Positions 7,353-28,562 of a stretch of 64,000 nucleotides of DNA are shown piece by piece. Numbering within the stretch: the stretch's first letter is position 1; every line of letters begins with the position of its first letter. The DNA is from an uncultured Verrucomicrobiota bacterium (GTDB lineage Bacteria > Verrucomicrobiota > Verrucomicrobiia > Methylacidiphilales > CAMAQI01), in NCBI GenBank assembly GCA_964555235.1, contig CAZKRU010000005.1:2457-66456 (forward strand), given 5' to 3'. The notes below the pieces were generated by a model that did no database searches, was not told the DNA's origin, and saw nothing but the letters and a program-made list of their open reading frames with translations. The translations under genes were made by a program, and so were the position numbers.

Positions 7353-8438
7353 TTAGGAGAGTCCTGCGATTTTTTGAACTTCATCCACAACGGATTGCAG
7401 TGAATTTTCCTGTGTGAAACGATTGCGGGTAAAACCAAAGGCCAGTCGATGTTTGAGACTCGCAAATCCGATCGATCCTCCATATCCGCCATGACCGAAG
7501 CGAGTCATTGTGGGGAGTGTTTCGACAATATATCCGAGCGCCCGATTTTTATTTGCATCTTGAGCCGGTTTATTTTTTGGAAGATGAATTTCGGTTGCGA
7601 GACGGATCCGTTCGGGTGGGAGTAGCTCGACGCCCTCAACTCCGCCGGGAAGAAGTGCCGCGTAGTGCCTGGCGATATCGTGGGCATTTGAGATTCCGCT
7701 GGAAGCTGGGAGGCAGGCGTGTTGTGCGTCGGAGCGATTCATCCATTCATGAAGGGGTTGGACCAGAGGAGGAATCGCTTGAGGGGCGGCGTTATGGGGC
7801 ATCGGTTCGGGAGCGGATTCTGCAGGTTCAGATTCGAGGAAGGCGACCTCGACTTCAGCCGGAATCCCGACATACAAATTGGAGAGGGAAAGGGGCTTGC
7901 AGATTTCATCTTCGAGAATTTTTTGAAACGATCTTCCATCAACCCGTCGAATCACTTCTCCAATCGTCCAACTGTAGGTAATAGCGTGGTAGGCGAATTC
8001 CTCTCCCGGTGCAGTGAGCGGCTTGAGGTCGGCAATGGCGGCCGCCATCGTCTCCCAGTCGCAAAGCTCTTTGTGTCCGATTCCCGTCGGCATGTGAGGA
8101 ACGCCTGACGTATGGCTGAGCGCATGGCGCAATGTGATTTCACCTTTTCCATGAGCGGCAAATTCCGGCCAACAATCGGCGATTCGAGTATCGTAAGTGA
8201 TTTGGCCGCGTTCAACGAGAAGATGAAGGAGGGTTGCAGCGATTCCTTTCGTCGTTGAGAAAACGGGGAAGAGGGTTTCGTTGGTGACCGGCTTTTGAGT
8301 TCTGACATCCGCAATTCCTGCCGAGGCGTTGACGACGAGTTTGCCGTCGAGGTAGGCGGCCGCTTGAACGCCACGCTCCTTTCCATCGGCGACGAGTTGA
8401 TTGAGAAGCGATTGAATGGAGGATTGGATGTCTTTCAT
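7353..8438 (-). CDS. Serine hydrolase, class C beta-lactamase/esterase family
   Basis: S-x-x-K motif 'FSTTKG'. I chose the start at 'MKDIQ' because it forms an ATGA overlap with the stop of the upstream regulator. The ORF track opens at 8474. Confidence 0.7.
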   Translation of the reverse strand: MKDIQSSIQSLLNQLVADGKERGVQAAAYLDGKLVVNASAGIADVRTQKPVTNETLFPVFSTTKGIAATLLHLLVERGQITYDTRIADCWPEFAAHGKGEITLRHALSHTSGVPHMPTGIGHKELCDWETMAAAIADLKPLTAPGEEFAYHAITYSWTIGEVIRRVDGRSFQKILEDEICKPLSLSNLYVGIPAEVEVAFLESEPAESAPEPMPHNAAPQAIPPLVQPLHEWMNRSDAQHACLPASSGISNAHDIARHYAALLPGGVEGVELLPPERIRLATEIHLPKNKPAQDANKNRALGYIVETLPTMTRFGHGGYGGSIGFASLKHRLAFGFTRNRFTQENSLQSVVDEVQKIAGLS

Positions 8439-9004
8439 GGGGCTTTCGAGGTTGGGGATTCGATGAAGAGGCAAATAAATTGGGCCCTTTTTTTGTGAAG
8501 CGGTTTGAGGGCGTGAGTCATTTTCGGATCAAAATAAAGAGAATCGCCGGGAGTGAGTTTCAGGGTTGTATCGCCCAAGGTAAAGGCCAACTCTCCAGAG
8601 AGCATGTAAATGAATTCTTGTCCGCCATGTTGGAATCGACCGTCTTTGTCGCCAGGTGAAACCGTAATGAGAAATGGCTCCACCGGTTTGCCCGGGTAAT
8701 CGATGGCGAGTGCTTCGTACGTGTAGCCAAGATCTGTTCCATCACGAACGATCTGCTTCCCCTTTCCTTTGCGGGTCAGAACATAAGAGGAGGGGGTGGA
8801 GTCTTCTTTGAAAAAATCGGCCAATCGAACGCCCAACGCCGAGGCGATCACGACCAGATTGGAGATCGGGGAGGAAATCCGGCCGTTCTCGATCTTGGAG
8901 AGAGTGCTCTTGGTGATCTTCGCGCGTTTAGCGACCTCGGTCAGGCTCACCTGGGAGGCCATGCGAATTGCCCGAATATTTTCGCCGACCATCTGTTCAT
9001 TCAC
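8435..9004 (-). CDS. XRE-family transcriptional regulator with C-terminal cupin domain
   Basis: HTH 'SLTEVAKRAKITKSTLSKIENGR' plus a cupin core 'GGQEFIYMLSGEL...GDSLYFD'. Confidence 0.85.
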   Translation of the reverse strand: MNEQMVGENIRAIRMASQVSLTEVAKRAKITKSTLSKIENGRISSPISNLVVIASALGVRLADFFKEDSTPSSYVLTRKGKGKQIVRDGTDLGYTYEALAIDYPGKPVEPFLITVSPGDKDGRFQHGGQEFIYMLSGELAFTLGDTTLKLTPGDSLYFDPKMTHALKPLHKKRAQFICLFIESPTSKAP

Positions 9005-9057: not shown

Positions 9058-9783
9058 TTACGGATTAAGCATCTGGGTTTCCACCCAACGAACGGCGTGA
9101 CGAATGAGTGCGGTGGCATCCTTTAATCCGAGCTTCTCTTTGATGTGACCCCGGTGAACATCGACGGTTTTGGAGCTGATGTGGAGTTTTTTGGCAATCT
9201 CGCGAGTGCTCATTCCCTGACCAATGTGCTGAAAGACTTCAAATTCCCGGTCACTCAGTTTTTCGATTGGCGAACTGGAGCCTCGCGGTTTGCGTCCGGT
9301 GAAGAGATCAAGAATCCGGGTCGACATCTTATCGCTGACATAAATCTGTCCATTTAAGACACGACGGATGGCGACGAGAAGATTTTCGCCGCCCGCCTCT
9401 TTCATGAGATAGCCACGGGCCCCGGCACGGAGGACGCGCTCGGCATAAAGAACTTCGTCGTGCATCGAGATAACGAGAATCGGGAGACCGGGGTGAGTGG
9501 CTTGAATGTCTTTAATAAACTCCAAGCCGCTTCGATTCGGCATGGTGATATCCGTGAGAATCAGATCAGGTTTCGACTTGGCGAGCTCCTGCATCGCGGA
9601 AACCGGGTCGCTGGCCTGGCAACTGATTTGAAGATCCGGCTGTTGATTGATCAATTGGGCGAGTCCCATACGCATCATCGGGTGATCATCCACGAGTAAA
9701 ATGCTTTTACGTGCAGTGCCCGAGGGAGGATCGGCTTTCAATTCAGAAGCTCCTGTTCCGGAAGATTTCTTTTTAAGACTCAT
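9058..9783 (-). CDS. NarL/LuxR-family response regulator
   Basis: Receiver domain ('ILLVDDHPMMRMGL...DLILTDITMP') plus a LuxR HTH ('LSDREFEVFQHIGQGMSTREIAKKLHISSKTVDVHR'). It overlaps the kinase gene by 4 nt. Confidence 0.9.
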   Translation of the reverse strand: MSLKKKSSGTGASELKADPPSGTARKSILLVDDHPMMRMGLAQLINQQPDLQISCQASDPVSAMQELAKSKPDLILTDITMPNRSGLEFIKDIQATHPGLPILVISMHDEVLYAERVLRAGARGYLMKEAGGENLLVAIRRVLNGQIYVSDKMSTRILDLFTGRKPRGSSSPIEKLSDREFEVFQHIGQGMSTREIAKKLHISSKTVDVHRGHIKEKLGLKDATALIRHAVRWVETQMLNP

Positions 9784-11237
9784 GATTTCGCTTTCTTCAG
9801 GGTGCAGAGGATCGTGGTTCCTTTACCTGGTTTTGATTCCAATTGGAGCTGTGCGCCGATTAAGTTTGCGCGTTGCCGCATGACATGAAGTCCAATCCCA
9901 GGTTTTGAATTTTTCTTTTTGGGAAATCCCTGACCATTATCCGAGACTTGCAACTGAATGCCGCTTGGGTGGTTTGTGAAATAAATGGTGACTTTGCTGG
10001 CCTGGGAGTGTTTCAGGGCATTATTGACCGATTCTTGGGCGATCCGGTAGAGGTGAATGGCGGTAGCGCTATCTTCCAGAGGGATGGTGGAGGGCGAATG
10101 TAGAACGCATTGAAGAATGCCAAGTTCGTTGGTGCAATAGGCGAGTTCGTCCAAGGCTTCCGTCAAGCCATCGGCTTCGAGATGAACGGGAGCCAAGCCT
10201 CGCGCCATTGCTCGGGTTTGAGTGATGGCTTCGCGGAGGTGCTGACAAATTCGCGAGGCTTGTTCTTCAAGGAAAGCGTTTTGACCGGGAAGACTGTTCT
10301 TTAAGGACTGACACATGAATTCGATCGCGGTGAGTTGTTGACCAAGACCATCATGTAATTCTGTCCCAAATCGATACTGTTCGCGCTCGCTCACAGTCAA
10401 AACGAGTCGTTCGCTCTCCTGAAGTTTAAGTTCGTTCGCTTTGCGTGCGGTGATGTCGGTTCGAATGGCAATATATTGAAACGGTTTCCCGGCATCATTC
10501 AAAAAGGGATAAATGGTCGTATCGACCCAGTAGTGTGAACCATCTTTTGCGCGATTTTTAATTTCCCCCCGCCAGACGTTCCCTCGAGAAATGGTGGTCC
10601 AGAGGTTTTTAAAAAATTCTTTCGGATGGTGTTGGGAGTTGATGATCCGGTGATCCTGACCGATCAGCTCCTTGCGGGAGTATTTGGAAAGGGAACAGAA
10701 TTTCTCATTCACGTCGGTAATTCGTCCACGCGGATCCGTAATTGCCACGATGGAGTGTTCGTCCAGCGCGGCTTTGATGGAGGTCAATTCATTCAGCGCA
10801 TTGATGGTACGCTTTTCGGAGAGCTTTCGGGCTGAAATGTCCCGAACAAATCCGACAAAGCCGCGTCCGCTCGCCAGATGGACTTGAGTGATGGAAAGTT
10901 CCATGGGAAACGTGGATCCATCCTTTCTTCGTCCGATCGCTTCGTGACAGAGGTGCAATCCTTTTTTCTTGGGATGGGAACGAATCAGATGATCTGCGAA
11001 CGCGCGGCGGTTTTCGGGATGCAAGAGCGTTTCGACTTTTCGTCCAATGAGATCATCCGGCCGATATCCGAATAATCGTGCCGCGGCGGGATTCAATGCA
11101 TCGACCAAGCCGTGAGGGGTTATCGTGATAATTCCCTCCGAGGTTGCTTCAAGGATCGCGTGCAATTTTTTCGCGCTGTCGGGAGTAGGAGTCTCACGAG
11201 CAGTCCTTTGAGAGGAAGGGATTTTTTTGAGTGCCAC
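9780..11237 (-). CDS. Soluble double-PAS sensor histidine kinase (HisKA_3 / NarX-type)
   Basis: No N-terminal TM segment and two PAS-like modules. The H-box 'ELHDGLGQQLTAI' and an HATPase region ('DNGQGF...GIGLHVMRQRA') are present. Confidence 0.85.
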   Translation of the reverse strand: MALKKIPSSQRTARETPTPDSAKKLHAILEATSEGIITITPHGLVDALNPAAARLFGYRPDDLIGRKVETLLHPENRRAFADHLIRSHPKKKGLHLCHEAIGRRKDGSTFPMELSITQVHLASGRGFVGFVRDISARKLSEKRTINALNELTSIKAALDEHSIVAITDPRGRITDVNEKFCSLSKYSRKELIGQDHRIINSQHHPKEFFKNLWTTISRGNVWRGEIKNRAKDGSHYWVDTTIYPFLNDAGKPFQYIAIRTDITARKANELKLQESERLVLTVSEREQYRFGTELHDGLGQQLTAIEFMCQSLKNSLPGQNAFLEEQASRICQHLREAITQTRAMARGLAPVHLEADGLTEALDELAYCTNELGILQCVLHSPSTIPLEDSATAIHLYRIAQESVNNALKHSQASKVTIYFTNHPSGIQLQVSDNGQGFPKKKNSKPGIGLHVMRQRANLIGAQLQLESKPGKGTTILCTLKKAKS

Positions 11238-11307
11238 GACATGCGAGTCTAGCGGTGAGGGTGATCTCTGGACAAGTGCGCTTTTTCAGAGGGGTGGTTA
11301 TCATTGG

Positions 11308-11535
11308 TTACGGTTTTTTGGGGCCCGCGTTTGCTCCGGCTCCGTAGGTGACCGCGCTTTCATTGAAAACATCTGATTGAAATCCACCGCTGTAGGACAT
11401 CAGATAAGCACCTGCCCAAAAAAGGAAAAGGCAGCACAGAATCCAGACCCAGAGAGGGAGCGCCTCTGTTTGAAAAGAGGGCGCCGCGTCTGGAGTTTCA
11501 GGATTATTTGAGAGGAGCAAAGGAGATTGGTTCAT
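11308..11535 (-). CDS. Small single-TM membrane protein, last gene of the cbb3-like cluster
   Basis: 75 aa with one hydrophobic helix ('LPLWVWILCCLFLFWAGAYLM'). It overlaps the CcoO-like gene by 32 nt. No recognisable motif. Confidence 0.35.
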   Translation of the reverse strand: MNQSPLLLSNNPETPDAAPSFQTEALPLWVWILCCLFLFWAGAYLMSYSGGFQSDVFNESAVTYGAGANAGPKKP

Positions 11536-12148
11536 CGTTGGGGGACTCCGGGAGTTCGTACGATTGATTAAGGGAGAGTAAATAGGCTACGAGTGCTTTT
11601 GCATCGGATTCGGGAACAATTTCATATCCGTCTGCAGGAGTGAAGGGAGGAGGAAGGATGAGTCGTTCGGTCGAAGGTTGACCCTTAATGGCTCGACGCG
11701 AATAAAGAAACGCAAACGACGGCATGAGGGTTCCACGACTGTGAAGCGACGGAGCGTAGAGGTGTTGATGGTGCCACTCGGCAGAAGGTTGGCGCTTTCC
11801 GATGTTCGCCAAATCCGGTCCAAGCCGGATGGAGCCGATGAGTGCGGGAGAGGTGCTCAGATAATCGCGAGCGACCGAACGACGATCTCCCCAACGCCGT
11901 GCGGCATCGTAGCCTTGATCTCGGGATCGTACTTGTTGCGTGTGGCAGGCGACACAACCATTGGCGGCATAAACCTGACGTCCCCGCTCCGCAATTCCGG
12001 AAAGGGGCGGAGGGAGGAGATCGCCTGAAACGGAATCCTGAAGTGGTTCGAGTTTTGCACTCTGCCAGAGCGGAATGAAGATGGTCCCAGTCCACGCAAA
12101 AAGAAATGCGGCGGCGCAACCGAGAATGAGTGGGATGATGCGTTTCAT
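11504..12148 (-). CDS. CcoO/FixO-like monoheme cytochrome c
   Basis: TM anchor, heme motif 'CVACH', and the FixO-like 'LGPDLANIGKRQPSAEWHHQHLYAPS...LMPSF'. I chose the start at 'MKRII', 1 nt after the stop of the upstream gene. Confidence 0.7.
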   Translation of the reverse strand: MKRIIPLILGCAAAFLFAWTGTIFIPLWQSAKLEPLQDSVSGDLLPPPLSGIAERGRQVYAANGCVACHTQQVRSRDQGYDAARRWGDRRSVARDYLSTSPALIGSIRLGPDLANIGKRQPSAEWHHQHLYAPSLHSRGTLMPSFAFLYSRRAIKGQPSTERLILPPPFTPADGYEIVPESDAKALVAYLLSLNQSYELPESPNDEPISFAPLK

Positions 12149-12149
12149 A

Positions 12150-13547
12150 TCAGGTCGAAAGTGAGGATTGTGGAGCAATCGCTGTTGGTGAAGGAAGATC
12201 GGAGGCGACCTTGAAACGGGTGAGGAGATAGAGCGTCACGAAAATGAATTGTCCTGCGGTAATGGAAATCCAGGCGAGGCTTCGGGCCCAGAGCGACGTT
12301 TTTAAGGGGTCGAGTAGATCGAGATAGGCGGTTTCTGCATGGGGAAGCGCAAAGGCTTGAGAGATTCCCGCATAGGCCAACGCGACAAAAGCAAATGCAG
12401 TTCCGAGAGCGACGAGCCAAAAGTGTGCATTCATCAGATCCGCTGAGGGCCATTCCCACTCACAGATTTGAGGAACGATCCAATACATGGCTCCGAACAT
12501 GACGAAGGTGTAGAATCCGTAGGTGACGAGGATCTCTTGTGCGGCAAAAAGCGGAGTGAACTGAAAAGGAGCATGGAGCGAGCGAAAAGCGAAGATCGCT
12601 TCGAAAATTCCGGAGAAGGTATAAGCCGCCAGCCCAAACCGTATAAATCGCAGGGCGGGATTGGCGCGAATGGAAGTTCCGGAGGTTCGAAGGAGGGGAA
12701 CGCTCAAATTTTTTACCACAGCGATGAGGGGAAGCAGTAACAGAACCCGGGCGATAATTCCGACGGTGACCAGCCAGCTCGGAATGGGGCCACCGACAAA
12801 ACGCTCGAAGCCGGTCCAACCTTGAAGAAGGATCAGGGACCAAAAGCCGAAGCGAGCGAGACCGAAATTCTCGATCGGTTGATCGGTGATTTTTGGAATC
12901 AAGAAGTAGAGCGTTGCCAGGGCCAGAGGAGTCAGCCAGAGGCCGATCAAGTTGGACGCATACCAAGTTTGAATTCCCGATGCCATGATTCCGAGTTTCA
13001 ACGTGGAGCCGAGGACTGCATGAAGGGTTCCCATAAGCCAAGGAAGCGCAAAGAGCGCGGCGATGAGATACCAGAGGGAAACAAAAAGAGGGCCGTTGAT
13101 TCGATTTTGTAAAAGTTGAAAAAATCCAAAAACCATCATGCCGTAAGCAATGAAGAAAAGAAAGAGAGCGCCATTTGAGAATTCCATTCCCGGTAGACCG
13201 ACGCCTTCTCCCGCAAGGATTCCACCCAAACTCCATAGGAGGACTCCATTCCAGAGAGTAATGCCGCTGATCGGAAGGGTTGAGGAACTGAGTGAGCTCC
13301 CGCAAAGTCGTGCCGTGATCCAGTAAGCGACTCCGAGTCCTGAAAGAGTGGCCCATCCGTAGAGAAAGAGCATCGCCGCTGCCGCATGAACGCGTCCGTA
13401 AGTCAGAAATGCCGTATCGTTCAAAAATTGAGGGGCGTGAAGTTTGATGAAGGCAATCAAGGCAAGTAGGCTGCTCGTGAGGAGCCAAAAAAGAGCGCTG
13501 CTGAAACAGGCCAAGACCGGAGGGCGCACGGAAGCGTCAATCTTCAT
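12150..13547 (-). CDS. CcoN-like polytopic membrane protein lacking the CuB and heme b3 histidine ligands
   Basis: Collinear with the CcoN part of 14102..16408, but 'WWYGHN' becomes 'TWYASN', 'GPHHLL' becomes 'GFERFV', and 'GHVHSG' becomes 'AQEILV'. The start is taken at 'MKIDAS' (the ORF track opens at 13637). Confidence 0.65.
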   Translation of the reverse strand: MKIDASVRPPVLACFSSALFWLLTSSLLALIAFIKLHAPQFLNDTAFLTYGRVHAAAAMLFLYGWATLSGLGVAYWITARLCGSSLSSSTLPISGITLWNGVLLWSLGGILAGEGVGLPGMEFSNGALFLFFIAYGMMVFGFFQLLQNRINGPLFVSLWYLIAALFALPWLMGTLHAVLGSTLKLGIMASGIQTWYASNLIGLWLTPLALATLYFLIPKITDQPIENFGLARFGFWSLILLQGWTGFERFVGGPIPSWLVTVGIIARVLLLLPLIAVVKNLSVPLLRTSGTSIRANPALRFIRFGLAAYTFSGIFEAIFAFRSLHAPFQFTPLFAAQEILVTYGFYTFVMFGAMYWIVPQICEWEWPSADLMNAHFWLVALGTAFAFVALAYAGISQAFALPHAETAYLDLLDPLKTSLWARSLAWISITAGQFIFVTLYLLTRFKVASDLPSPTAIAPQSSLST

Positions 13548-13607
13548 GTTGCTAGTCTTAGCAAAGCTGATGAAAATTTGACATTGGAGGTCCGGCGAAA
13601 TTTCAAT

Positions 13608-13622
13608 AGGGAAGTTCCTTAG
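13608..13622. promoter_or_regulatory. Second copy of the GGAA-N-TTCCTTAG site (AGGGAAGTTCCTTAG)
   Basis: 13 of 15 positions match the core of the 13711..13733 palindrome. It lies about 60-75 nt upstream of the CcoN-like start. Confidence 0.4.
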
Positions 13623-13710
13623 GGCGAATTGCTCCACGGCTTCCTCAATTTAAGAGGGAGCATGGTTTTTTTCGATGCTTCCCTAGGGGCGTTTCCGAGG
13701 AGGTTCAGGT

Positions 13711-13733
13711 TCACTAAGGAATTTCCTTAGTGA
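13711..13733. promoter_or_regulatory. Perfect 23-bp palindrome TCACTAAGGAA-T-TTCCTTAGTGA (candidate operator)
   Basis: 11-bp arms around one central base. It sits in the divergent intergenic region between the two cbb3-type clusters. Confidence 0.5.
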
Positions 13734-13916
13734 GAATTCGCTCCGCCTCTAATTTCAAGCGGGCTTAAAAATAGGTATCCTCTCTCCCATGAAAACATTC
13801 TGTCTCATGGAAGTGGCTCACGTGAGTGCGATGAGGCGGGATGGATCAATCTCGATTCAAGAAAAATGAATGGCCGGATCTATGAACGAGTACGACGTGT
13901 TGTGGGAAAGGCAATC

Positions 13917-14090
13917 ATGAATGTGATTGTGCTGACGATCTTTATTGGGCTCGTGCTGGTCTTCGTTTTTATTTTTCTATTTATGATCAATCAAAGTGAC
14001 GCTCCGGGAGATCGGGATGCGTTGCTTCCCTTGACAGAGGAAAAGCCGTCAGTTCCTCGAGTTCATTCAACTCCCCCAAAACAAACCTGA
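13917..14090 (+). CDS. ccoS: cbb3 oxidase maturation protein CcoS
   Basis: Short protein with one TM segment ('MNVIVLTIFIGLVLVFVFIFLFMINQSD...'), directly upstream of ccoNO. The start is taken at an internal ATG (the ORF opens at 13866). Confidence 0.6.
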   Translation: MNVIVLTIFIGLVLVFVFIFLFMINQSDAPGDRDALLPLTEEKPSVPRVHSTPPKQT

Positions 14091-14101
14091 GCCATTCCCC
14101 T

Positions 14102-16408
14102 ATGAGTCAATCGTCTGGAAAAAGAATCACCGTTGAATTTGATGACGAAATCGTCAGAAAGTTCATGACGGCGTCGATCGTCTTTTCAATTGTGGGGATG
14201 TTGGCGGGAGTGATCATCGCTTCCCAGTTGGCGCACTGGCAGGCGAACTTTAATCTCCCCTGGTTGACCTTCGGGCGATTGCGTCCGCTTCACACCAACG
14301 CGGCGATTTTTGCGTTTGTCGGGAATATGATGTTTGCGGGGATTTATTATTCCATGCAGCGTCTTCTTAAAACAAGATTGGCTTCCGATTTTCTCTCGGC
14401 CGTTCACTTCTGGGGATGGCAGGCGATTATTGTCGCAGCGGCCATTTCGCTCCCGCTCGGATATTCACGTGGTAAGGAATACGCGGAGTTGATTTGGCCC
14501 ATTAATATCCTGGTTGTGGTGATTTGGGTCGTCTTTGCCGTTAATTTCTTTTGGACTCTGGCGATCCGTCGCGAAAAAACGCTCTACGTCGCGATCTGGT
14601 TTTACATTGCGACGATTATCACCGTGGCGATGCTTTATATTGTCAATCATCTGCAGATACCGACGAGTTGGACGCACGGATATCCGATCTTCGGAGGGGT
14701 TCAAGATGCCTTGGTACAGTGGTGGTATGGGCACAACGCCGTCGCCTTCTTTTTAACGACGCCGATTCTTGGAATTATGTATTACTTCATGCCGAAGGCG
14801 GCGGAGCGACCGGTTTACTCCTATCGACTTTCCATTGTTCACTTCTGGTCTTTGGTTTTCATCTATATTTGGGCGGGGCCGCATCATCTTTTAAATACGG
14901 CGCTTCCCGATTGGCTTCAATCACTCGGAATGATTTTCAGTCTCATGCTCTGGGCGCCTTCCTGGGGAGGGATGCTGAATGGGTTGCTGACGTTACGAGG
15001 TGCCTGGCATAAGTTGCGCACGGATCCGGTTCTCAAGTTTTTAGTGGCCGGGGTGACTTTTTATGGGATGGCGACCTTCGAAGGGCCACTGCTGGCGATC
15101 AAGTCAATCAATGCGCTTTCCCACTATACGGATTGGACGGTTGGACACGTTCATAGTGGAACGCTCGGTTGGAACGGATATATGGCGGCGGGGATGTTTT
15201 ACTGGCTGGCTCCACGACTTTGGAATACGAAGCTCTACTCGATTCCTCTCGCCAATATGCATTTCTGGCTCGGTCTGATCGGAATTCTCCTCTACATCGC
15301 CTCGATGTGGGTCGCGGGGATTACGCAAGCACTGATGTTGAATGCGACAACGGAAGGGGGAACCGTTTTGGCGAATCCGAATTTCATCGAGTCATTGCTG
15401 GCCATTCGTCCGATGATGTATATGCGAATGATTGGCGGCGCGTTTTTCCTCATCGGATTTATTCTGATGGCCTACAATATTTGGATGACTGCCCGAAGCG
15501 GGCAGGCGGTGAATGGAACCATCGAGGTTTATGAAGAGGAGGGAACTGAAGTTCGCACGGTGAATCTTGTCCGGGCATTCTTCAACGCTCCGGTCGCCTA
15601 TGCTTTTGCAATCATTGTTCTGGCGCTGACTTGGGGCGTGGGAGGAGATTTTCTCAAGCTGATGGCAATGCTTGGGCTGATTGGAATTCTGCCCGTCGCC
15701 TATTTTCATATGCGACTTCGAGAACAGACTTGGGGGGACTGGTATGATCGTCTCCTGGCGAGCGTGGTTCCTTTTGCGATGTTAACGGCGGTGGCGGCTG
15801 TGATTGGGGGGATGGTTCAGATTATTCCGACTCTGATCGTCAATCGAAAGGATAATGTCGAGGGGATGCGTCAGATTCCGTACACGCCGTTGGAGCTGGC
15901 AGGGCGCGAAATTTATGTTCGTGAAGGATGTTATAATTGTCACTCGCAGATGATCCGGCCTTTTGTGAGCGAGGTGATGCGGTATGGGGCCTATTCTCGC
16001 TTGGGCGAGTCGATCTATGATCACCCATTTCAATGGGGATCCAAGCGCACGGGGCCCGATCTGCAGCGTATCGGAGGAAAGTATCCGAACCTCTGGCATT
16101 TCAAGCACACGGAAGATCCTCGCTCGACTTCGGTTGGATCGAACATGCCGAACTATCCGTGGCTCTACCACCAATCAACCGACATCGCTTCATTAAAATC
16201 AAAGCTGGATGCACTGACTCAACTCGGAGTTCCCTATGCGCCCCGGGATCATGCGACGATCCAACGTGAGGTGCTCGAGCAGGCGCAGGGAATTGTCGAT
16301 GATCTGAAAAAGAATGGAGCGGAGACGCAACCGGATCGGGAGATTGTGGCAGTGATTGCCTATCTCCAGAAACTTGGAAAATCAGAAAAAGTTCCTGCAA
16401 AGCAATAA
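14102..16408 (+). CDS. ccoNO: Fused cbb3-type cytochrome c oxidase subunits I+II (CcoN-CcoO)
   Basis: 768 aa. All CcoN ligand motifs are present ('RPLHTNA', 'WWYGHNAV', 'GPHHLL', 'GHVHSG'). The C-terminal FixO domain has 'CYNCH' and 'GPDLQRIGGKYPNLWHFKH'. Confidence 0.9.
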   Translation: MSQSSGKRITVEFDDEIVRKFMTASIVFSIVGMLAGVIIASQLAHWQANFNLPWLTFGRLRPLHTNAAIFAFVGNMMFAGIYYSMQRLLKTRLASDFLSAVHFWGWQAIIVAAAISLPLGYSRGKEYAELIWPINILVVVIWVVFAVNFFWTLAIRREKTLYVAIWFYIATIITVAMLYIVNHLQIPTSWTHGYPIFGGVQDALVQWWYGHNAVAFFLTTPILGIMYYFMPKAAERPVYSYRLSIVHFWSLVFIYIWAGPHHLLNTALPDWLQSLGMIFSLMLWAPSWGGMLNGLLTLRGAWHKLRTDPVLKFLVAGVTFYGMATFEGPLLAIKSINALSHYTDWTVGHVHSGTLGWNGYMAAGMFYWLAPRLWNTKLYSIPLANMHFWLGLIGILLYIASMWVAGITQALMLNATTEGGTVLANPNFIESLLAIRPMMYMRMIGGAFFLIGFILMAYNIWMTARSGQAVNGTIEVYEEEGTEVRTVNLVRAFFNAPVAYAFAIIVLALTWGVGGDFLKLMAMLGLIGILPVAYFHMRLREQTWGDWYDRLLASVVPFAMLTAVAAVIGGMVQIIPTLIVNRKDNVEGMRQIPYTPLELAGREIYVREGCYNCHSQMIRPFVSEVMRYGAYSRLGESIYDHPFQWGSKRTGPDLQRIGGKYPNLWHFKHTEDPRSTSVGSNMPNYPWLYHQSTDIASLKSKLDALTQLGVPYAPRDHATIQREVLEQAQGIVDDLKKNGAETQPDREIVAVIAYLQKLGKSEKVPAKQ

Positions 16409-16419
16409 CGGAGCAAACG

Positions 16420-16605
16420 ATGTTTCATCGATTACATTATGAAGAGTGGCAGACTTGGTTTCCGATCATTGGATTTTTCATTTTCTTTGCGGTCTTTTTG
16501 ATCGTCTGTTATCGGGTGATTCGAATGCCGCGCCGGGATGTTGAGCGTTTGGAAGGGCTTCCCTTTGATGATGAAAAGGCAAAATCTTCCGGAGCTCATT
16601 CATGA
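16420..16605 (+). CDS. CcoQ-like small cbb3 subunit
   Basis: 61 aa with a single TM segment ('WFPIIGFFIFFAVFLIVCY'), between ccoNO and ccoP. It overlaps ccoP by 4 nt. Confidence 0.55.
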   Translation: MFHRLHYEEWQTWFPIIGFFIFFAVFLIVCYRVIRMPRRDVERLEGLPFDDEKAKSSGAHS

Positions 16606-17153
16606 GCGAGCATTCTCAGCAGCCAATGGCGGGCGATGAATCGGTTCGAGCACACTCGTTCGATGGAATTCAGGAATTTGACAAACGACTTCCGAATTGG
16701 TGGCTCTGGACGCTTTACGTCATGGTGCTTTTCTCCTTTGGATACTGGTTTTACTACCAATGGCCGGGACCGGGAAATGTGATCAGTGCCGGAGAGTGGC
16801 TTGACCGGGAAATGACCCGGATCGAAGTCGAGGCTTCGACACGCGCGGGAGGCGATCTTAATGATGCGCAGCTCTGGAAGATGAGTCAGGATCCGCAGAT
16901 TGTGGCATCCGGGAGGACGACCTTTCTGACGACTTGCGCCTCCTGTCATGGACCGGAAGCCAAAGGACTCATTGGCCCCAATCTGACCGATGAAGTCTGG
17001 ATTCACGGGGGGCGTCCGCAGGAAATTGTTACAATGGTGACGAAAGGTTCGCTAGAGAAAGGGATGCCGCAATGGGGTCCGCAGTTAGGGCGAAAGAAAA
17101 TCGTCGAGGTGGTTTCCTATATTCTGAGTCTTCACACGCCGCCGGCAAATTAA
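16602..17153 (+). CDS. ccoP: cbb3 oxidase subunit III (CcoP), monoheme form
   Basis: FixP N-terminal motif ('HSFDGIQEFDKRLPNWWLWT') plus a single 'CASCH' cytochrome c domain. Confidence 0.8.
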   Translation: MSEHSQQPMAGDESVRAHSFDGIQEFDKRLPNWWLWTLYVMVLFSFGYWFYYQWPGPGNVISAGEWLDREMTRIEVEASTRAGGDLNDAQLWKMSQDPQIVASGRTTFLTTCASCHGPEAKGLIGPNLTDEVWIHGGRPQEIVTMVTKGSLEKGMPQWGPQLGRKKIVEVVSYILSLHTPPAN

Positions 17154-17154
17154 A

Positions 17155-18540
17155 ATGAAGATGGTTCAGCCCTCTTTGGATCAGGTGACAACCATTAATG
17201 AGGATGGCTCACGAAATTTTATTTATCCAGCTGATGTTCGGGGGCGATTTACGAATTTGAGAAAGTGGGTGGCATTGGCGCTGATTCTTTTCTATGCGTC
17301 CCTTCCGTGGATTCAAGTGAATGGAAATCCAGCGGTTTTTCTGGATACGACCCATAACCAATTTCATCTCATCGGTTTAACGCTCGTCGGGCAGGATCTC
17401 TGGCTCGGTTTTTTTGTCGTCACCGGAATGGGTTTTTCGCTTTTTTTTCTTACCTCGCTTTTGGGGCGACTTTGGTGCGGGTGGGCCTGTCCTCAAACCG
17501 TTTTTATCGAACAGGTTTACCGCAGGATCGAGCGATGGATTGAGGGGCCTGCCTTGGAGCGTCGTCAGCTTGAATCGTCATCGTGGAGTTCCGATAAAAT
17601 CATCAAGCGATTTTTCAAGCACCTGATCTACCTCGTGCTTTCGGTGGCAATCGCCCATCTTTTTCTTTCGTATTTCGTATCGCTTCCGGAACTTTATCGA
17701 ATGATGAAGACATCGCCGGGAGCAAACCTCGGGCTCTTTCTTTTTGTCTTTCTGCTCTCCGGGCTGCTCTATTTTAATTTTGCTTGGTTCCGTGAGCAGT
17801 TCTGCATTGTTCTCTGTCCGTATGGGCGACTCCAATCTGCGCTCATCGATGATCATTCTGTGGTGATTGGTTACGACAAAATTCGAGGTGAGCCTCGAGG
17901 AAAGGCAACGACTTCCGGAGTGGGGAGCTGTGTCGATTGCCATCGATGCGTCCAGGTCTGTCCGACCGGAATCGATATTCGACAGGGACTCCAGATGGAA
18001 TGCATCAGTTGCTCCAACTGCATTGATGCGTGTGACGAAGTGATGGTGAAGCTGGAACGTCCCAAGGGCCTGATTCGGTACGATTCTATGAAAGGTCTGT
18101 CAGGCGATCGGACTCGCTGGATTCGTCCTCGGACGATTCTCTATAGTGGCTTGCTTCTCTTGGGGACGGCGGTGATGGTTTTTGCCCTTTCAACATTTCG
18201 CCCCTTGAGTGTCAGTGCGCTTCGCATGGTGGGGGCACCGTATTATTTGACGGAAGAGAGCGTTCGGAATCAATATCTGATGAAATTTTTAAATAAGGAG
18301 AATCGTCCCTTGAAATGCCGAGTCATGGTTGAAGCGGAAGGGAAGCCCGTCATCTTAACCGGTGTCGAGGATGAGATTGAAATCCCGGCACTCGGGGAGC
18401 AGATGCGTCCTCTGGTTGTTACCCTTGCACGCTCGGAATTTCACGAGAGTTTTCCCCTCAAGGTTACAATAACTTCTCCAGATCATTCCTTTGTCATCTC
18501 GAAATCGCTTCCATTTTTAGGCCCGGAGGCGGCTCATTGA
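17155..18540 (+). CDS. ccoG: cbb3 assembly ferredoxin-like protein CcoG
   Basis: Multiple TM helices and two 4Fe-4S motifs ('CVDCHRCVQVCP', 'CISCSNCIDAC'). Confidence 0.85.
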   Translation: MKMVQPSLDQVTTINEDGSRNFIYPADVRGRFTNLRKWVALALILFYASLPWIQVNGNPAVFLDTTHNQFHLIGLTLVGQDLWLGFFVVTGMGFSLFFLTSLLGRLWCGWACPQTVFIEQVYRRIERWIEGPALERRQLESSSWSSDKIIKRFFKHLIYLVLSVAIAHLFLSYFVSLPELYRMMKTSPGANLGLFLFVFLLSGLLYFNFAWFREQFCIVLCPYGRLQSALIDDHSVVIGYDKIRGEPRGKATTSGVGSCVDCHRCVQVCPTGIDIRQGLQMECISCSNCIDACDEVMVKLERPKGLIRYDSMKGLSGDRTRWIRPRTILYSGLLLLGTAVMVFALSTFRPLSVSALRMVGAPYYLTEESVRNQYLMKFLNKENRPLKCRVMVEAEGKPVILTGVEDEIEIPALGEQMRPLVVTLARSEFHESFPLKVTITSPDHSFVISKSLPFLGPEAAH

Positions 18541-18553
18541 GCGGGGAGAATTT

Positions 18554-18703
18554 ATGATGGAATGGATTTTAAGGCGTCCTTGGATTTGGATCGTTTTACT
18601 CTTCGTCGGTTTGATTATGAGTTGGTCACAACTTTTTGTCTTGGCGGGAAAAAATCAACCTCAGCCGATTCCACTCGAATCGGGGTCCGCTCGGCATGAG
18701 TAG
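18554..18703 (+). CDS. Unlisted 49-aa single-TM ORF between ccoG and the DsbD_2-like gene
   Basis: ATG at 18554, in frame to TAG at 18701-18703. Translation: 'MMEWILRRPWIWIVLLFVGLIMSWSQLFVLAGKNQPQPIPLESGSARHE'. Its stop overlaps the next ATG (ATGAGTAG). It is too short for the ORF track. Confidence 0.4.
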   Translation: MMEWILRRPWIWIVLLFVGLIMSWSQLFVLAGKNQPQPIPLESGSARHE

Positions 18704-19391
18704 TCTGCTCCCGGTGACTCCATGGGCGGCATTGGTTTTGGGACTGGTGACCAGTTTACACTGCGTCGGAATGTGCGGGCCGTTGGCTTGTGCCACGGGA
18801 ACATTTTCAAATAGTAAAATGTTTCGTTGGGATATTCTTTCGTATCATGGGGGAAGATTCTTTTCGTATGCCGTAGCAGGCATGGTACTGGGTGGTTTTG
18901 GTGAAGTCGCCGCGGGTTGGTTTTCAAGTGCTCCCGCGCAATGGCTTCCCGGGTTCATGATTCTGGCATTCCTTCTGATGGCATTGGGTTGGGAGCAAAA
19001 AATTCCGAAACTCTTGATTTTTCAGAAATTAATGGGGCCATTCTATGACCGAATTCGTGGGCACTCGAGCTGGATTCGTTTGGGTGGACTGGGACTGGTG
19101 ACACCGCTTCTCCCGTGTGGACCGCTTTATCTCGTCTTTGGGGCTGCGGCACTTTCCGGTTCCTGGAGGGCCGGGGGATTTCTCATGACGATGTTTGTAT
19201 TGGGAACCATTCCGCTCTATGCAGGGCTCAATCTTTGGATTGTTCGATTGGGAGGGATTTTTTCTCCGCGGATTCTCCAGTGGTCACGGCAGGGGATTGC
19301 CTTATTGTCCGTGTTGTTATTAGTCTGGAGAGTCTTGCCCTCCCATGGAGAAGGAATAGTTGTGACGGAGTGTCCGTTCCATGGGCGTTGA
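18696..19391 (+). CDS. DsbD_2 / TauE-like membrane protein associated with cbb3 maturation
   Basis: Polytopic, with the motif 'LHCVGMCGPLA'. It lies between ccoG and ccoI. The start is taken at 'MSSLLP' (the ORF opens at 18636). Confidence 0.55.
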   Translation: MSSLLPVTPWAALVLGLVTSLHCVGMCGPLACATGTFSNSKMFRWDILSYHGGRFFSYAVAGMVLGGFGEVAAGWFSSAPAQWLPGFMILAFLLMALGWEQKIPKLLIFQKLMGPFYDRIRGHSSWIRLGGLGLVTPLLPCGPLYLVFGAAALSGSWRAGGFLMTMFVLGTIPLYAGLNLWIVRLGGIFSPRILQWSRQGIALLSVLLLVWRVLPSHGEGIVVTECPFHGR

Positions 19392-21747
19392 ATTAACCGC
19401 TTGTTTGCATTGTGGGACTCCGTTTTATCCGACGCCACAACGGGCCGACTATTGCTGCTCCGGATGTGAATTTGTCCGAGGGCTGATTGTGGAGAAGGGG
19501 TTGGGAACGTTTTATGATTTAAAAGAAGCTCCGGTTCCTCCGGTGACCTCTCTGGTTTTTCAACAGCGGGATTATCGATGGTTGGAGGAACTCGTTCAAC
19601 TTCGAGAGGTCGAGGAGGAAAATGTTTCGGAACTGAAACTCGATTTGCAGGGGATTTCCTGTGTGGGGTGTGTCTGGTTGGTAGAGAAATTGTTTATGCG
19701 TCGGGTCGGTGCAGTTTCGATCGAAGTGGATGCGGCCCTGGGGAAGATGAGGCTGCGTTGGGAACGCGGTCATTGTGATCTTCCGGAATTTGCGCGTGAG
19801 ATTTTAGCCTTCGGTTACTTGGTGGGGCCCGAGGGAAAATCGCTCCCGGAGGAGAGCCAGGGCTTGGTCCGACGCATCGGGCTCTGTGCGGCGTTTATGA
19901 TGAATTCGATGCTCTTTGCGTTCCCCGATTATCTCGGGATGGAATCTACCTTTGAGTACTCCCGACTCTTTCATTTTCTTCTCGTGGTCTTTGCGACGTT
20001 GAGTTATCTCGTCGGGGGAAGTTATTTTTTGAAGCGAACGTGGCATAGTTTGCGCCACGGGGTCCTTCATCTGGATCTTCCGATTTCACTCGGAGTCACC
20101 GCAGCGTATGTCGGCTCACTCTTCGCTTGGTGGCATGGAGCGATGCATTTTGTCTATCTTGAATTTGTTTCGACCTTTATTTTTTTAATGTTGGTCGGAC
20201 GCTGGCTTCAGCAGAAGGCGTTGGAGCGGAATCGTCACCGTCTGTTGGATGCCGGAATGGGAATTCCTCCGGTCACCGCGCTCGAGTCTGAGGAACGGAT
20301 TGAAGTCGAGGAGGTGAAGTGCGGACTCGCTTATCGAGGAGGGAGTGGGCAGGTCGTTCCGGTGCGGTCGAAGCTTCTTTCATCCGATGCGAGTGTGGGG
20401 TTGGATTGGATCAGCGGAGAAGCGGGGGCCCGGCATGTTCGAGCGGGGGAACTCGTACCTTCGGGAGCGATTTTATTGGGCCAGCAAGAGGTGACACTCG
20501 AGGCATTGGAGGATTGGAGTGAATCGGTTTTGGCGTCGCTGGTCAAAATCGTCACCCGCGATCCCTTTCGGAATCTGGCCGTGGAACATTGGATTCGTGG
20601 ATACCTTTTCGTAATTTTGGGAGTGGCCTTTGCGGGGGGATGTTACTGGCAGTGGCAAGAGGGAGAGTGGTTACGAACGCTTCAAGTCGTGACTTCAATT
20701 TTGGTCGTTTCGTGCCCTTGTGCGACGGGAGTTGCGTTGCCGATGATTGATGATCTTTTGGTGCGGCGACTTCAAGCGATTGGCGTTTTTGTGAGGGAGT
20801 TAACGCTTTGGTCGAAACTTCCTGGAGTGCGTAAAATCATTTTTGATAAAACGGGAACGATCACCTTTGATACACTGGCGTTGAAAAATCGGGAGTCGCT
20901 CGATGCGCTTACCGATCGGGATCGAGAGAATTTATTGAATTTGGTTTGGGAGAATTGGCATCCGGTGAGTATTTGTTTGAGATCGGAGCTCTTGGCGATG
21001 GGGACTCGCCTCAAAGAGAAGAATTGCGGAGCGATTACGGAATGCCCCGGTTATGGCTTGGAGGATGCGAGCACTGAAGGGAAGTGGCGTCTCGGTCGGC
21101 CTTCGTGGGCGATTCCCGAGATGAAAGAATTCCAAGGGGGGATTCCCGATACAATTTTGTCACGGGATGGAGAGGAAGTGGCGCGCTTTTATTTTTCAGA
21201 AGAAATCAGACCGGATAGTGTTTCGGAGATGATGGCACTTCATCGGAAGGGATATGAAATTCATCTTCTCAGCGGGGATCGTCGCTCAAAAGTTGAGGCG
21301 ATGTCTCAGAAGTTGAACCTGCCCATCTCCCGCTGTCTGGCGGAACTGACTCCGGAAGAAAAGGCGGAGCGAATTCGCGCACTCGATCGACAGGATACCT
21401 TAATGATCGGAGATGGCGCCAATGACAGTCTTGCGTTTAATGCTAGCTGGTGCACTGGAACACCTGCCGCAGATCGGGGACTGCTCGAGCGTAAGGCCGA
21501 TTTTTATTTTCTCGGACGAGGGCTGATTGGGGTCCGGCAACTTTTGATGGCCTCTGAAGCACGACAGAAGACCATTCGACGGGTTTTTACCTTTACGATT
21601 CTTTATAATTTGACCGTGGTGATCCTCTCACTCCTTGGAAAAATGAGCCCAGTGATGGCGGCCATCCTCATGCCATCGAGTTCCGTCGTTTCCCTCGCGA
21701 TTGTCTTCGCCTCTCTCCCTGATTTCCAACGGATGAAGGCTCGCTAA
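19381..21747 (+). CDS. ccoI: Copper-translocating P1B-type ATPase for cbb3 maturation (CcoI/FixI)
   Basis: 788 aa. N-terminal Cys-rich region ('CLHCGTPF...CCSGCEFV'), TM 'SCPCA' motif, 'FDKTGTIT' and 'GDGANDS'. Confidence 0.85.
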   Translation: MGVELTACLHCGTPFYPTPQRADYCCSGCEFVRGLIVEKGLGTFYDLKEAPVPPVTSLVFQQRDYRWLEELVQLREVEEENVSELKLDLQGISCVGCVWLVEKLFMRRVGAVSIEVDAALGKMRLRWERGHCDLPEFAREILAFGYLVGPEGKSLPEESQGLVRRIGLCAAFMMNSMLFAFPDYLGMESTFEYSRLFHFLLVVFATLSYLVGGSYFLKRTWHSLRHGVLHLDLPISLGVTAAYVGSLFAWWHGAMHFVYLEFVSTFIFLMLVGRWLQQKALERNRHRLLDAGMGIPPVTALESEERIEVEEVKCGLAYRGGSGQVVPVRSKLLSSDASVGLDWISGEAGARHVRAGELVPSGAILLGQQEVTLEALEDWSESVLASLVKIVTRDPFRNLAVEHWIRGYLFVILGVAFAGGCYWQWQEGEWLRTLQVVTSILVVSCPCATGVALPMIDDLLVRRLQAIGVFVRELTLWSKLPGVRKIIFDKTGTITFDTLALKNRESLDALTDRDRENLLNLVWENWHPVSICLRSELLAMGTRLKEKNCGAITECPGYGLEDASTEGKWRLGRPSWAIPEMKEFQGGIPDTILSRDGEEVARFYFSEEIRPDSVSEMMALHRKGYEIHLLSGDRRSKVEAMSQKLNLPISRCLAELTPEEKAERIRALDRQDTLMIGDGANDSLAFNASWCTGTPAADRGLLERKADFYFLGRGLIGVRQLLMASEARQKTIRRVFTFTILYNLTVVILSLLGKMSPVMAAILMPSSSVVSLAIVFASLPDFQRMKAR

Positions 21748-28487: not shown

Positions 28488-28562
28488 ATTTGAAAACAAC
28501 GCTTATTTGCAGTTTGTCCCTCGTGCTTGACGTGTTTTATCGATTATTAAATCTTGCTTCTC

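Follow-up and report, generated by a model that had tools for sequence, protein, structure and literature searches.

In a 64,000-nucleotide stretch of DNA from an uncultured Verrucomicrobiota bacterium (GenBank assembly GCA_964555235.1, contig CAZKRU010000005.1, positions 2,457 to 66,456; hereafter the window), we identified a gene pair on the minus strand, which we call N* and O. N* is a relative of CcoN, subunit I of cbb3-type oxidases, that, judging from its sequence, most probably binds neither haem nor copper, and O is a cytochrome c of the CcoO/FixO type. By predicted fold and by ancestry N* is a C-family haem-copper oxidase (HCO) subunit I, and by its ligand positions it falls outside every catalytic HCO family. 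We propose, with confidence and doubt evenly balanced, that in N*/O a dead oxidase subunit serves as the base of a cytochrome c module anchored in the membrane, which would relay electrons or form a bridge to a real oxidase. What we infer from the genes is complex formation by N* and O, the loading of O with haem, the flow of electrons through it and the identity of the partner served. The pair and the truncated gene that follows it are:

12150..13547, minus strand: N*, a predicted cofactor-less CcoN paralogue of 465 aa with 12 transmembrane (TM) helices (Pfam COX1, BLASTP, AlphaFold2, Foldseek)
11504..12148, minus strand: O, a CcoO/FixO-type monohaem cytochrome c of 214 aa with an N-terminal TM anchor (Pfam FixO, 81 bits)
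11308..11535, minus strand: a truncated third subunit of 75 aa with a single TM helix and a YSGGFQSDVF motif (alignment with homologues)

N* has the fold of CcoN and lacks its ligands

As the initial annotation of this region had observed, N* and the CcoN half of a fused CcoNO protein encoded nearby are collinear (24% identity over 415 aa, BLASTP E-value 1e-29). N* scored 115.9 bits against the Pfam model PF00115 COX1 (cut-off 34.8), which places it among the homologues of HCO subunit I, and 93.4 bits against the ccoN model TIGR00780 (cut-off 583), which does not make it an equivalog of CcoN. The only solved structures matched by the N* sequence at an E-value of 0.001 were cbb3 CcoN chains. 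A single-chain AlphaFold2 (AF2) model made with 27 homologues consisted of twelve long helices, with a predicted local distance difference test (pLDDT) score of 90 and a predicted TM-score (pTM) of 0.92, and Foldseek matched this model to the cbb3 CcoN structures 9g6b, 8smr and 3mk7 (TM-score 0.88–0.90, E-value 3e-19) ahead of cNOR and of the A- and B-type oxidases. The earlier description of an intact frame that is hydrophobic throughout stands, with 465 aa and 12 TM helices.

In family alignments the key columns of N* hold A57, S198, Q242, E248, R249, Q337 and I339, a signature of ASQERQI versus HHYHHHH in true CcoN. The CuB His columns are occupied by S198, E248 and R249, the haem b3 His column by Q337, the first and second haem b His columns by A57 and I339, and the column of the cross-link Tyr in helix VII by Q242; the six positions at which the HCO superfamily has His thus read A, S, E, R, Q and I. 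An HMMER alignment of N* to 8smr agreed on these columns. The strings TWYASNLI, WTGFERFV and FAAQEILV, which had been read as loss of the binuclear-centre His and of the second haem b His, are present, and the alignments bear out that reading. None of the six His, and not the Tyr either, is found in its aligned column, and the first haem b His is probably lost too. We considered H54 ('GRVHAAA') as a surviving haem b ligand and rejected it: only BLASTP paired it, through a 3-residue gap, while HMMER and MAFFT put it three residues upstream of the first haem b column, and the position is Q in the closest relative, protein P0002 (62% identical). Because H54 is off-column and is Q in P0002, all six ligands are probably gone from N*.

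Since zero ligands remain and the family shows hypervariable ligand columns, with no conserved substitute metal site, we conclude from the alignments that N* cannot act as an O2 or NO reductase, in agreement with the earlier argument that such a scaffold is unable to reduce O2. A site of the NO reductase type (a high-spin haem His and three FeB/CuB His plus Glu, or a variant of this) was likewise absent from N*.

Selection and conservation of N*

N* is under purifying selection and not decaying, with a constraint that is evident but clearly weaker than that on true CcoNO. The ratio of nonsynonymous to synonymous change (dN/dS) for N* was 0.13 between the window and P0002, which is encoded on the JGI contig L084 (pN 0.23, pS 0.70), and 0.21 between L097 and L098, two loci arranged like the window (see below); O gave 0.13–0.18 over both comparisons and CcoNO gave 0.03 between L097 and L098, all of these ratios being rough because synonymous sites are near saturation. 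The reading frame of N* was unbroken in every relative examined. The initial annotation had named dN/dS as the means to separate purifying selection from decay, and the values point to retention.

Loss of all cofactor ligands, a third subunit cut to an anchor, fast sequence evolution and the existence of a related cbb3 cluster (L096) without the pair would suit a non-functional remnant, that is, a relocated, truncated and decaying oxidase operon. We think this highly improbable and regard it as largely refuted by the selection data, as read from the sequences: the 465-codon frame is whole in the window, P0002, L097 and L098 despite synonymous saturation, N* has a dN/dS of 0.13–0.21 and AF2 gives it a confident 12-helix fold, the nearest clusters (below) are mostly full length although about 140 of 149 are without most or all ligand His, and an upstream non-coding element is conserved with L084.

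Because the His-less state is common to the orthologue P0002 and to hundreds of relatives, it is not a chance feature of N*. A phmmer search with N* against 1.84 billion cluster representatives gave 1512 matches, 237 of them below 1e-30. Among the best 149 of the 1512 (50%-identity clusters), about 5 had the full HHYHHHH and about 140 were His-poor, with most or all ligand His lost and near-arbitrary residues in their place, and most of the 149 were of normal full length. A metagenome scan for closer relatives of N* found none above 36% identity; P0002, on a 1.9-kb contig, is the sole close orthologue.

We compared 178 His-poor N proteins with 73 His-bearing sisters. Columns at least 75% conserved in the His-poor group carry the majority residue of the sisters too, save for two exchanges (Ala/Ser and Gly/Ala), and the conserved residues are mainly Gly, Pro, Trp and other non-ligand types. 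Nine positions invariant in the sisters were lost along with the ligands (153, 193, 194, 267, 282, 329, 332, 422 and 433 in window numbering), and no residue was fixed specifically in the His-less group. As judged from these alignments, the conservation pattern of His-poor N is that of a scaffold and not of a new active site. A new activity on the scaffold, such as ion or proton conduction through a channel, transport or metal binding by non-His residues, would fit an HCO fold that contains proton and gas channels, and E122 and H375 (window numbering) are kept in 82% and 87% of His-less members; we nevertheless find it very unlikely, given the lack of any residue conserved specifically in this group, the loss of the nine sister-conserved positions and ligand columns that take almost any residue. 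N* has the features of a pseudo-enzyme: it has lost the catalytic residues and kept the fold, its dN/dS lies well below 1, and it is retained across lineages.

O and a truncated third subunit

O carries CVACH and the axial Met motif LMP, as a CcoO subunit does, and its TM segment spans residues 3-27; its matches to the NCBIfam ccoO-type models were below cut-off. The gene call in L001 and the orthologue in L084 both place the true start at ATG 12148 rather than TTG 12178, which leaves a 1-nt gap between the N* stop and the O start. In the genome scan described below, the O partner kept CXXCH in 24/24 distinct His-less loci and the axial Met in 22/24.

The 75-aa ORF shares 32 nt with the 3' end of the O gene and has its TM helix at residues 23-48. 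It aligns with the third subunits of loci L008, L093, L094, L095, L002 and L016 and ends just short of the point where the cytochrome c domain starts in these homologues (about 180-300 aa); by blastp, its residues 17-75 matched the N-termini of cytochromes c of 230-300 aa. The ORF itself had no Pfam match and no CXXCH, so it is not a CcoP-like cytochrome c. From these alignments, the 75-aa protein is what remains, as a membrane anchor, of a third, cytochrome c subunit. The FixO-type neighbour with CVACH and the small protein with one TM helix had both been recognised in the initial annotation.

Relatives encoded after alternative complex III

Judged by its relatives, the N*/O pair descends from a cbb3-like N-O-P oxidase encoded after actABCDEF(G), the genes of alternative complex III (ACIII), in Verrucomicrobiota, Planctomycetota and Acidobacteriota. 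A scan of one genome per species of the Genome Taxonomy Database (GTDB), with a 5-sequence alignment as query, found 80 loci, mostly in Chthoniobacterales and other Verrucomicrobiota and also in Phycisphaerae/Tepidisphaerales and Bryobacteraceae. Together with two further loci carrying protein P0016 these formed a set of 82, in which N was ligand-complete in 57 and His-less in 25 (~30%). Searches with the L002 ACIII proteins showed that all His-less loci whose upstream DNA could be read (23/23) lie directly after actB-C-D-E-F(-G), and most His-bearing loci likewise follow act genes; because act genes precede the loci, we take the N*-type family to be the oxidase module of ACIII 'superoperons'. 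Three His-less loci looked up independently (L093, L094 and L095) have actA-G, then N*, O and a cytochrome c, followed in L093 and L094 by CoxII, CoxI, CtaA, CtaB, CoxIII and SCO1. Downstream DNA of 5.5 kb or more was available for 18 distinct His-less loci, and 14 of these had an A-type CoxI, CoxIII and usually CoxIV.

The best blastp matches of both N* and O were ACIII-linked Chthoniobacterales proteins, which puts the window pair in the ACIII-linked clade. Its nearest relatives there are His-bearing (38-40% for N* and 51-53% for O), nearer than the other His-less members. A neighbour-joining tree of the N proteins placed all His-less members at the base on long branches; we treated this as long-branch attraction and, because the N tree is distorted in this way, used trees of the O subunit, whose evolution is more even. 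In neighbour-joining trees of O the His-less partners were monophyletic in 0/100 bootstraps, and parsimony on these trees gave a median of 6 state changes (range 3-7). As far as the sequences indicate, N ligands have been lost repeatedly in the family, usually at loci that have another terminal oxidase as a neighbour.

Some further features of these loci were noted. The ACIII operon, the His-less N*-O-cytochrome c genes and an A-type oxidase (CoxI/III/IV/II, in places with CtaA/CtaB/SCO1) form one long same-strand cluster in L017, L024, L031-L036, L042, L049, L062, L068, L093 and L094. We considered a 'hybrid oxidase', in which a downstream A-type CoxI without a CuA subunit II would use the N*/O cytochromes, and rejected it on finding CoxII with the CuA motif CxQxCGxxHxxM (L017 18061..18885, L008 12410..13729 and L024 16632..17549) and Pfam-annotated COX2 genes in L093 and L094. 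The Gln in this motif replaces the usual Glu, so a standard pattern search misses these genes. Several ligand-complete proteins (P0008, P0010, P0011, P0013-P0015, P0018, P0020 and P0024) have an N-terminal extension of ~50-80 aa with a TM helix followed by 'W-A-x4-Q' and 'IF..GE', which by eye resembles a fused CcoS/FixS-type assembly protein. At L015 (9209..11458) the longest ORF that contains the His-less N (AHSQSWT) is 749 aa, ~250 aa longer N-terminally than its relatives, which may reflect either a fusion to the act gene before it or an in-frame start further upstream.

The divergent cbb3 cluster and its relatives

N* is divergently transcribed from CcoNO, which is a real cbb3 oxidase. 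The features from the intergenic region onward are:

13548..13865, no strand assigned: divergent control region (palindromes, hairpin match with L084)
13866..14090, plus strand: small TM ORF of 74 aa in a ccoS/ccoQ-like position, no family match
14102..16408, plus strand: CcoNO, a fused CcoN-CcoO of 768 aa with six His and Tyr (HHYHHHH; COX1 363.7 bits, FixO 278.1 bits)
16420..16605, plus strand: small ORF in the CcoQ position (assigned by position)
16602..17153, plus strand: monohaem CcoP (Pfam)
17155..18540, plus strand: CcoG (Pfam)
18636..19391, plus strand: DsbD_2 protein (Pfam)
19381..21747, plus strand: CcoI-type P-type ATPase (Pfam)

Syntenic relatives were found with the canonical CcoNO as query (73-75% identity), and the cbb3 gene order of the window is repeated in L096, L097 and L098. 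Both L097 and L098 have a His-less COX1-like gene (AHASELT and AHSRDLT) and a FixO-like gene with CXXCH, divergent, as in the window, from the small ORF, ccoNO, Q, P, G, DsbD_2 and ccoI; L099 is a partial copy of this arrangement. L097 and L099 also have small ORFs equivalent to 13866..14090. In 88/100 bootstraps the window O grouped in one clade with those of L097 and L098. CcoNO is 74% identical between the window and L097, O 51% and N* 27%, and the N* value is 25-27% over L097 and L098. By its lack of act genes and its shortened third subunit, the window N*/O pair is a relocated and reduced module, and its arrangement beside ccoNO is conserved in L097 and L098.

As a separate observation, CcoP is short (183-196 aa) in the window (16602..17153), L096 (12480..13070), L097 (12573..13133) and L098 (12573..13133). 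Because it consists of FixP_N and one cytochrome c domain in all four clusters, it is monohaem and not the usual dihaem type.

The divergent gap between N* and ccoNO is 555 nt (13548..14101), with the small TM ORF inside it. The perfect palindrome TCACTAAGGAA/TTCCTTAGTGA occupies 13711..13733, and 13606..13622 holds another, degenerate copy; a palindrome search gave 2 matches versus 0.19 expected, the element occurring only in this intergenic region. The outer arms (about 13575..13610 and 13722..13760, in minus-strand sense) match a 73-nt hairpin upstream of P0002 (L084 56..128, -35.3 kcal/mol, z -5.7), and in the window they enclose an insert of ~108 nt with a second inner copy. This upstream element is kept between the window and L084 despite saturated synonymous coding sites, and could be an operator or a 5'-leader structure. 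The exact palindrome was absent from the other loci scanned, which included L088/L089 and L090, two of the three contexts of the kinase orthologues described below. An XRE-type HTH and cupin regulator at 8435..9004 (minus strand), directly downstream of the response regulator described below, is another candidate palindrome binder.

A possible role for N*/O

In cbb3 oxidases electrons pass from the haem c of CcoO to haem b in CcoN. Across the His-less family the acceptor haem b site is gone and the donor haem c motif is kept under selection, always beside another complete terminal oxidase or ACIII. The haem c site is retained in every CcoO partner, and for this reason an electron relay is the best fit among the three roles offered in the initial annotation (sensor input, electron relay or channel). 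N* would then be a pseudo-enzyme, with the CcoN fold and without haem b, haem b3 or CuB, that has been kept as a scaffold in the membrane for a small complex in which the haem c of O would be the only redox centre. Such a complex could dock through the large TM surface of N*, and the O haem would pass electrons to the real oxidase, or N*/O would hold that oxidase in a supercomplex; the target would be the divergent cbb3 oxidase in the window and aa3 in the ACIII-linked relatives. A broader proposal, which we put forward tentatively and with rather more doubt than conviction, is that the His-less family may bridge ACIII to a different terminal oxidase (aa3, or cbb3 in the window) both physically and electronically. 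If true, a dead oxidase would here have given rise to a respiratory supercomplex subunit of a new class.

The main rival is a structural or assembly role without electron transfer, in which N*/O stabilises, assembles or regulates the cbb3 oxidase (or an ACIII-aa3 supercomplex), for example by providing a docking site or by holding the CcoO-type cytochrome, with the haem off the main electron path. The conserved divergent placement beside ccoNO in L097 and L098, the conservation in N* of fold-type residues only, and the published precedents of respiratory subunits that lack ligands and are retained for structural reasons, the COX1-like protein encoded near ctaB in Acetobacter and the deranged bc1 complex (PMC10715153), would all suit such a role. 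An irrelevant haem should drift, yet CXXCH is kept in 24/24 loci and Met in 22/24, and a cbb3 cluster of the L096 type exists without the pair; we therefore consider a purely structural role unlikely.

Several observations also weigh against the electron-relay reading that we prefer. The constraint on N* is weak, because its dN/dS is 4-7 times that of CcoNO and it is 25-27% identical between the window and L097/L098. The L096 locus has the cbb3 cluster and no N*/O pair, and because that cluster stands without the pair, N*/O is dispensable for cbb3. The window differs from the relatives in its surroundings: a tblastn search with ActB-ActG found nothing over its 64 kb, and no ACIII or aa3 genes lie within it. 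Some His-bearing Chthoniobacterales loci (L007-L013, L019-L021 and L035) also have a downstream CoxI, the association of ligand loss with a neighbouring second oxidase is one of raw counts that ignore kinship, and all trees are neighbour-joining.

The neighbouring kinase and response regulator

Two regulatory genes follow the module on the same strand:

9780..11237, minus strand: soluble sensor kinase with two PAS domains, HisKA_3 and HATPase_c (Pfam)
9058..9783, minus strand: NarL/LuxR-type response regulator with REC and GerE (Pfam)

The initial annotation had described a soluble double-PAS kinase 70 nt beyond the small TM gene and a LuxR-type regulator after it, and Pfam matches agree with this arrangement, in which there is a 4-nt overlap of the regulator with the kinase stop codon. 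Neither a TM segment nor a recognisable docking domain is present in the kinase, and the regulator is likewise without a hydrophobic segment. Because the 70-nt gap between the 75-aa ORF and the kinase has no terminator-like site, co-transcription of the kinase with the module is possible. We considered and rejected NreB-like Fe-S sensing by the kinase, the PAS domains having no CxxC pairs in our reading of the sequence.

The functional link that had been drawn between N* and this kinase/regulator pair was not borne out. The survey that the initial annotation had suggested, for co-occurrence of PAS kinases with the His-less clade, gave no kinase match beside the module in any of the 82 related loci by blastp, and neither kinase nor regulator stands beside the pairs of L097 and L098, where unrelated genes lie downstream of O, amt/P-II in one locus and ruvC with further genes in the second. 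Kinase orthologues of the same architecture, three in number (L088, L090 and L091; 56-60% identity) and each followed by the regulator, sit after a PocR/AraC regulator gene, with a radical SAM gene following in 2/3 contexts and no respiratory or oxidase genes near any of the three. The conserved co-occurrence expected of a two-component system with a membrane sensor is thus absent. From these comparisons we regard the kinase and regulator as a lineage-specific neighbour and not as part of the N*/O module, and their adjacency was probably made by the same rearrangement that shortened the third subunit.

A sensor role, in which N*/O would signal redox state, O2 or NO to the PAS kinase and the LuxR regulator would control the cco promoters, would account for the same-strand order of the small TM gene and the kinase across a 70-nt gap without a terminator-like site, and for an operator-like palindrome found only between N* and ccoNO. 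It is hard to reconcile with the lack of a kinase near any relative of the module, with L097 and L098 pairs that have neither kinase nor regulator, with kinase orthologues in PocR/AraC and radical SAM contexts without oxidase genes, with the absence of the exact palindrome from the other scanned loci (including the kinase contexts L088/L089 and L090), and with a kinase that has neither a TM or docking domain nor a CxxC-type cluster motif in its PAS domains, and we give it very little credence. Of the repurposing suggested in the initial annotation, the electron relay is what fits best, with the haem c kept, and the sensor input is what falls away, the kinase link not being conserved.

Other features of the window

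Downstream of the cco genes, 25183..27777 and 28554..30467 encode a hybrid kinase, in which Pfam finds three PAS stretches besides HisKA, HATPase_c and REC, and another P-type ATPase. At 42811..60049 the plus strand carries a series of very large ORFs, among them two for RCC1-repeat proteins of 990 and 1370 aa that also have CHB_HEX_C_1/Fn3-associated and TSP3 repeats, one for a protein of 406 aa with YadA-head repeats, and one of 2967 aa.

Significance and comparison with known systems

Gene surveys routinely take matches to 'cbb3-type subunit I' as high-affinity O2 respiration. By their ligand positions, 25 of the 82 ACIII-linked loci and about 140 of the 149 nearest clusters are predicted to be unable to bind haem or copper, and because such ligand-less genes carry cbb3 annotations, microaerobic capacity is overstated in Verrucomicrobiota and their neighbours. 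The repeated loss of N ligands with the haem c of O kept amounts to a natural experiment on uses of the CcoN scaffold beyond catalysis. A recurrently ligand-less C-family clade, paired with a cytochrome and located in ACIII/cbb3 clusters, appears to be undescribed: in the literature searched, which did not cover subscription journals, we found no description of a His-less CcoN clade, and the sole ligand-less precedent was the A-family protein of Acetobacter. Active-site His are treated as invariant in HCO classification save for gNOR (PMC11214002), and a ligand-less clade under selection falls outside that scheme.

The Acetobacter protein, a 'deranged' COX1-like protein from which all metal-binding residues are gone, is kept beside ctaB and was suggested to be structural, according to the summary in PMC10715153. 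Like N*, it is a ligand-less HCO subunit I retained in the genome. As summarised there, it is an A-family, alphaproteobacterial protein linked to haem O synthase, and, unlike N*, it has no paired cytochrome c subunit and no ACIII/cbb3 context. In gNOR one active-site His is replaced by Asp, and it was called the first HCO family with such a replacement; it is related to the B-family and thought to be still a catalytic NO reductase (Murali et al. 2024, PMC11214002). One His is swapped in gNOR, whereas N* has lost all ligands with no conserved replacement.

Co-location of ACIII and cbb3 genes was noted previously for Methylacidiphilum/Verrucomicrobia (PMC6688271). The ACIII-linked N-O-P oxidases, which are the nearest relatives of the window module, share its three-gene order and the N-terminus of its third subunit; they differ in keeping HHYHHHH and in following actABCDEF(G), whereas the window module stands opposite a canonical ccoNO with no act genes in 64 kb. 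The cbb3 oxidases of P. stutzeri (3mk7) and P. aeruginosa (8smr) have the same 12-helix subunit I fold, a FixO-type neighbour and the order N, O, third subunit, but they possess the six His and Tyr, none of which is present in N*, and the third subunit of the window is an anchor only. In the R. capsulatus CIII2CIV supercomplex (6xkw), cytochrome cy, with CcoH, is a membrane-anchored cytochrome c that wires complex III to the oxidase. The function proposed for N*/O would be similar, a membrane-tethered haem c placed between a terminal oxidase and a quinol:cytochrome c oxidoreductase, and the likeness is one of functional analogy; cytochrome cy is held by a single-helix anchor, whereas the anchor of N*/O would be an entire disabled oxidase subunit.

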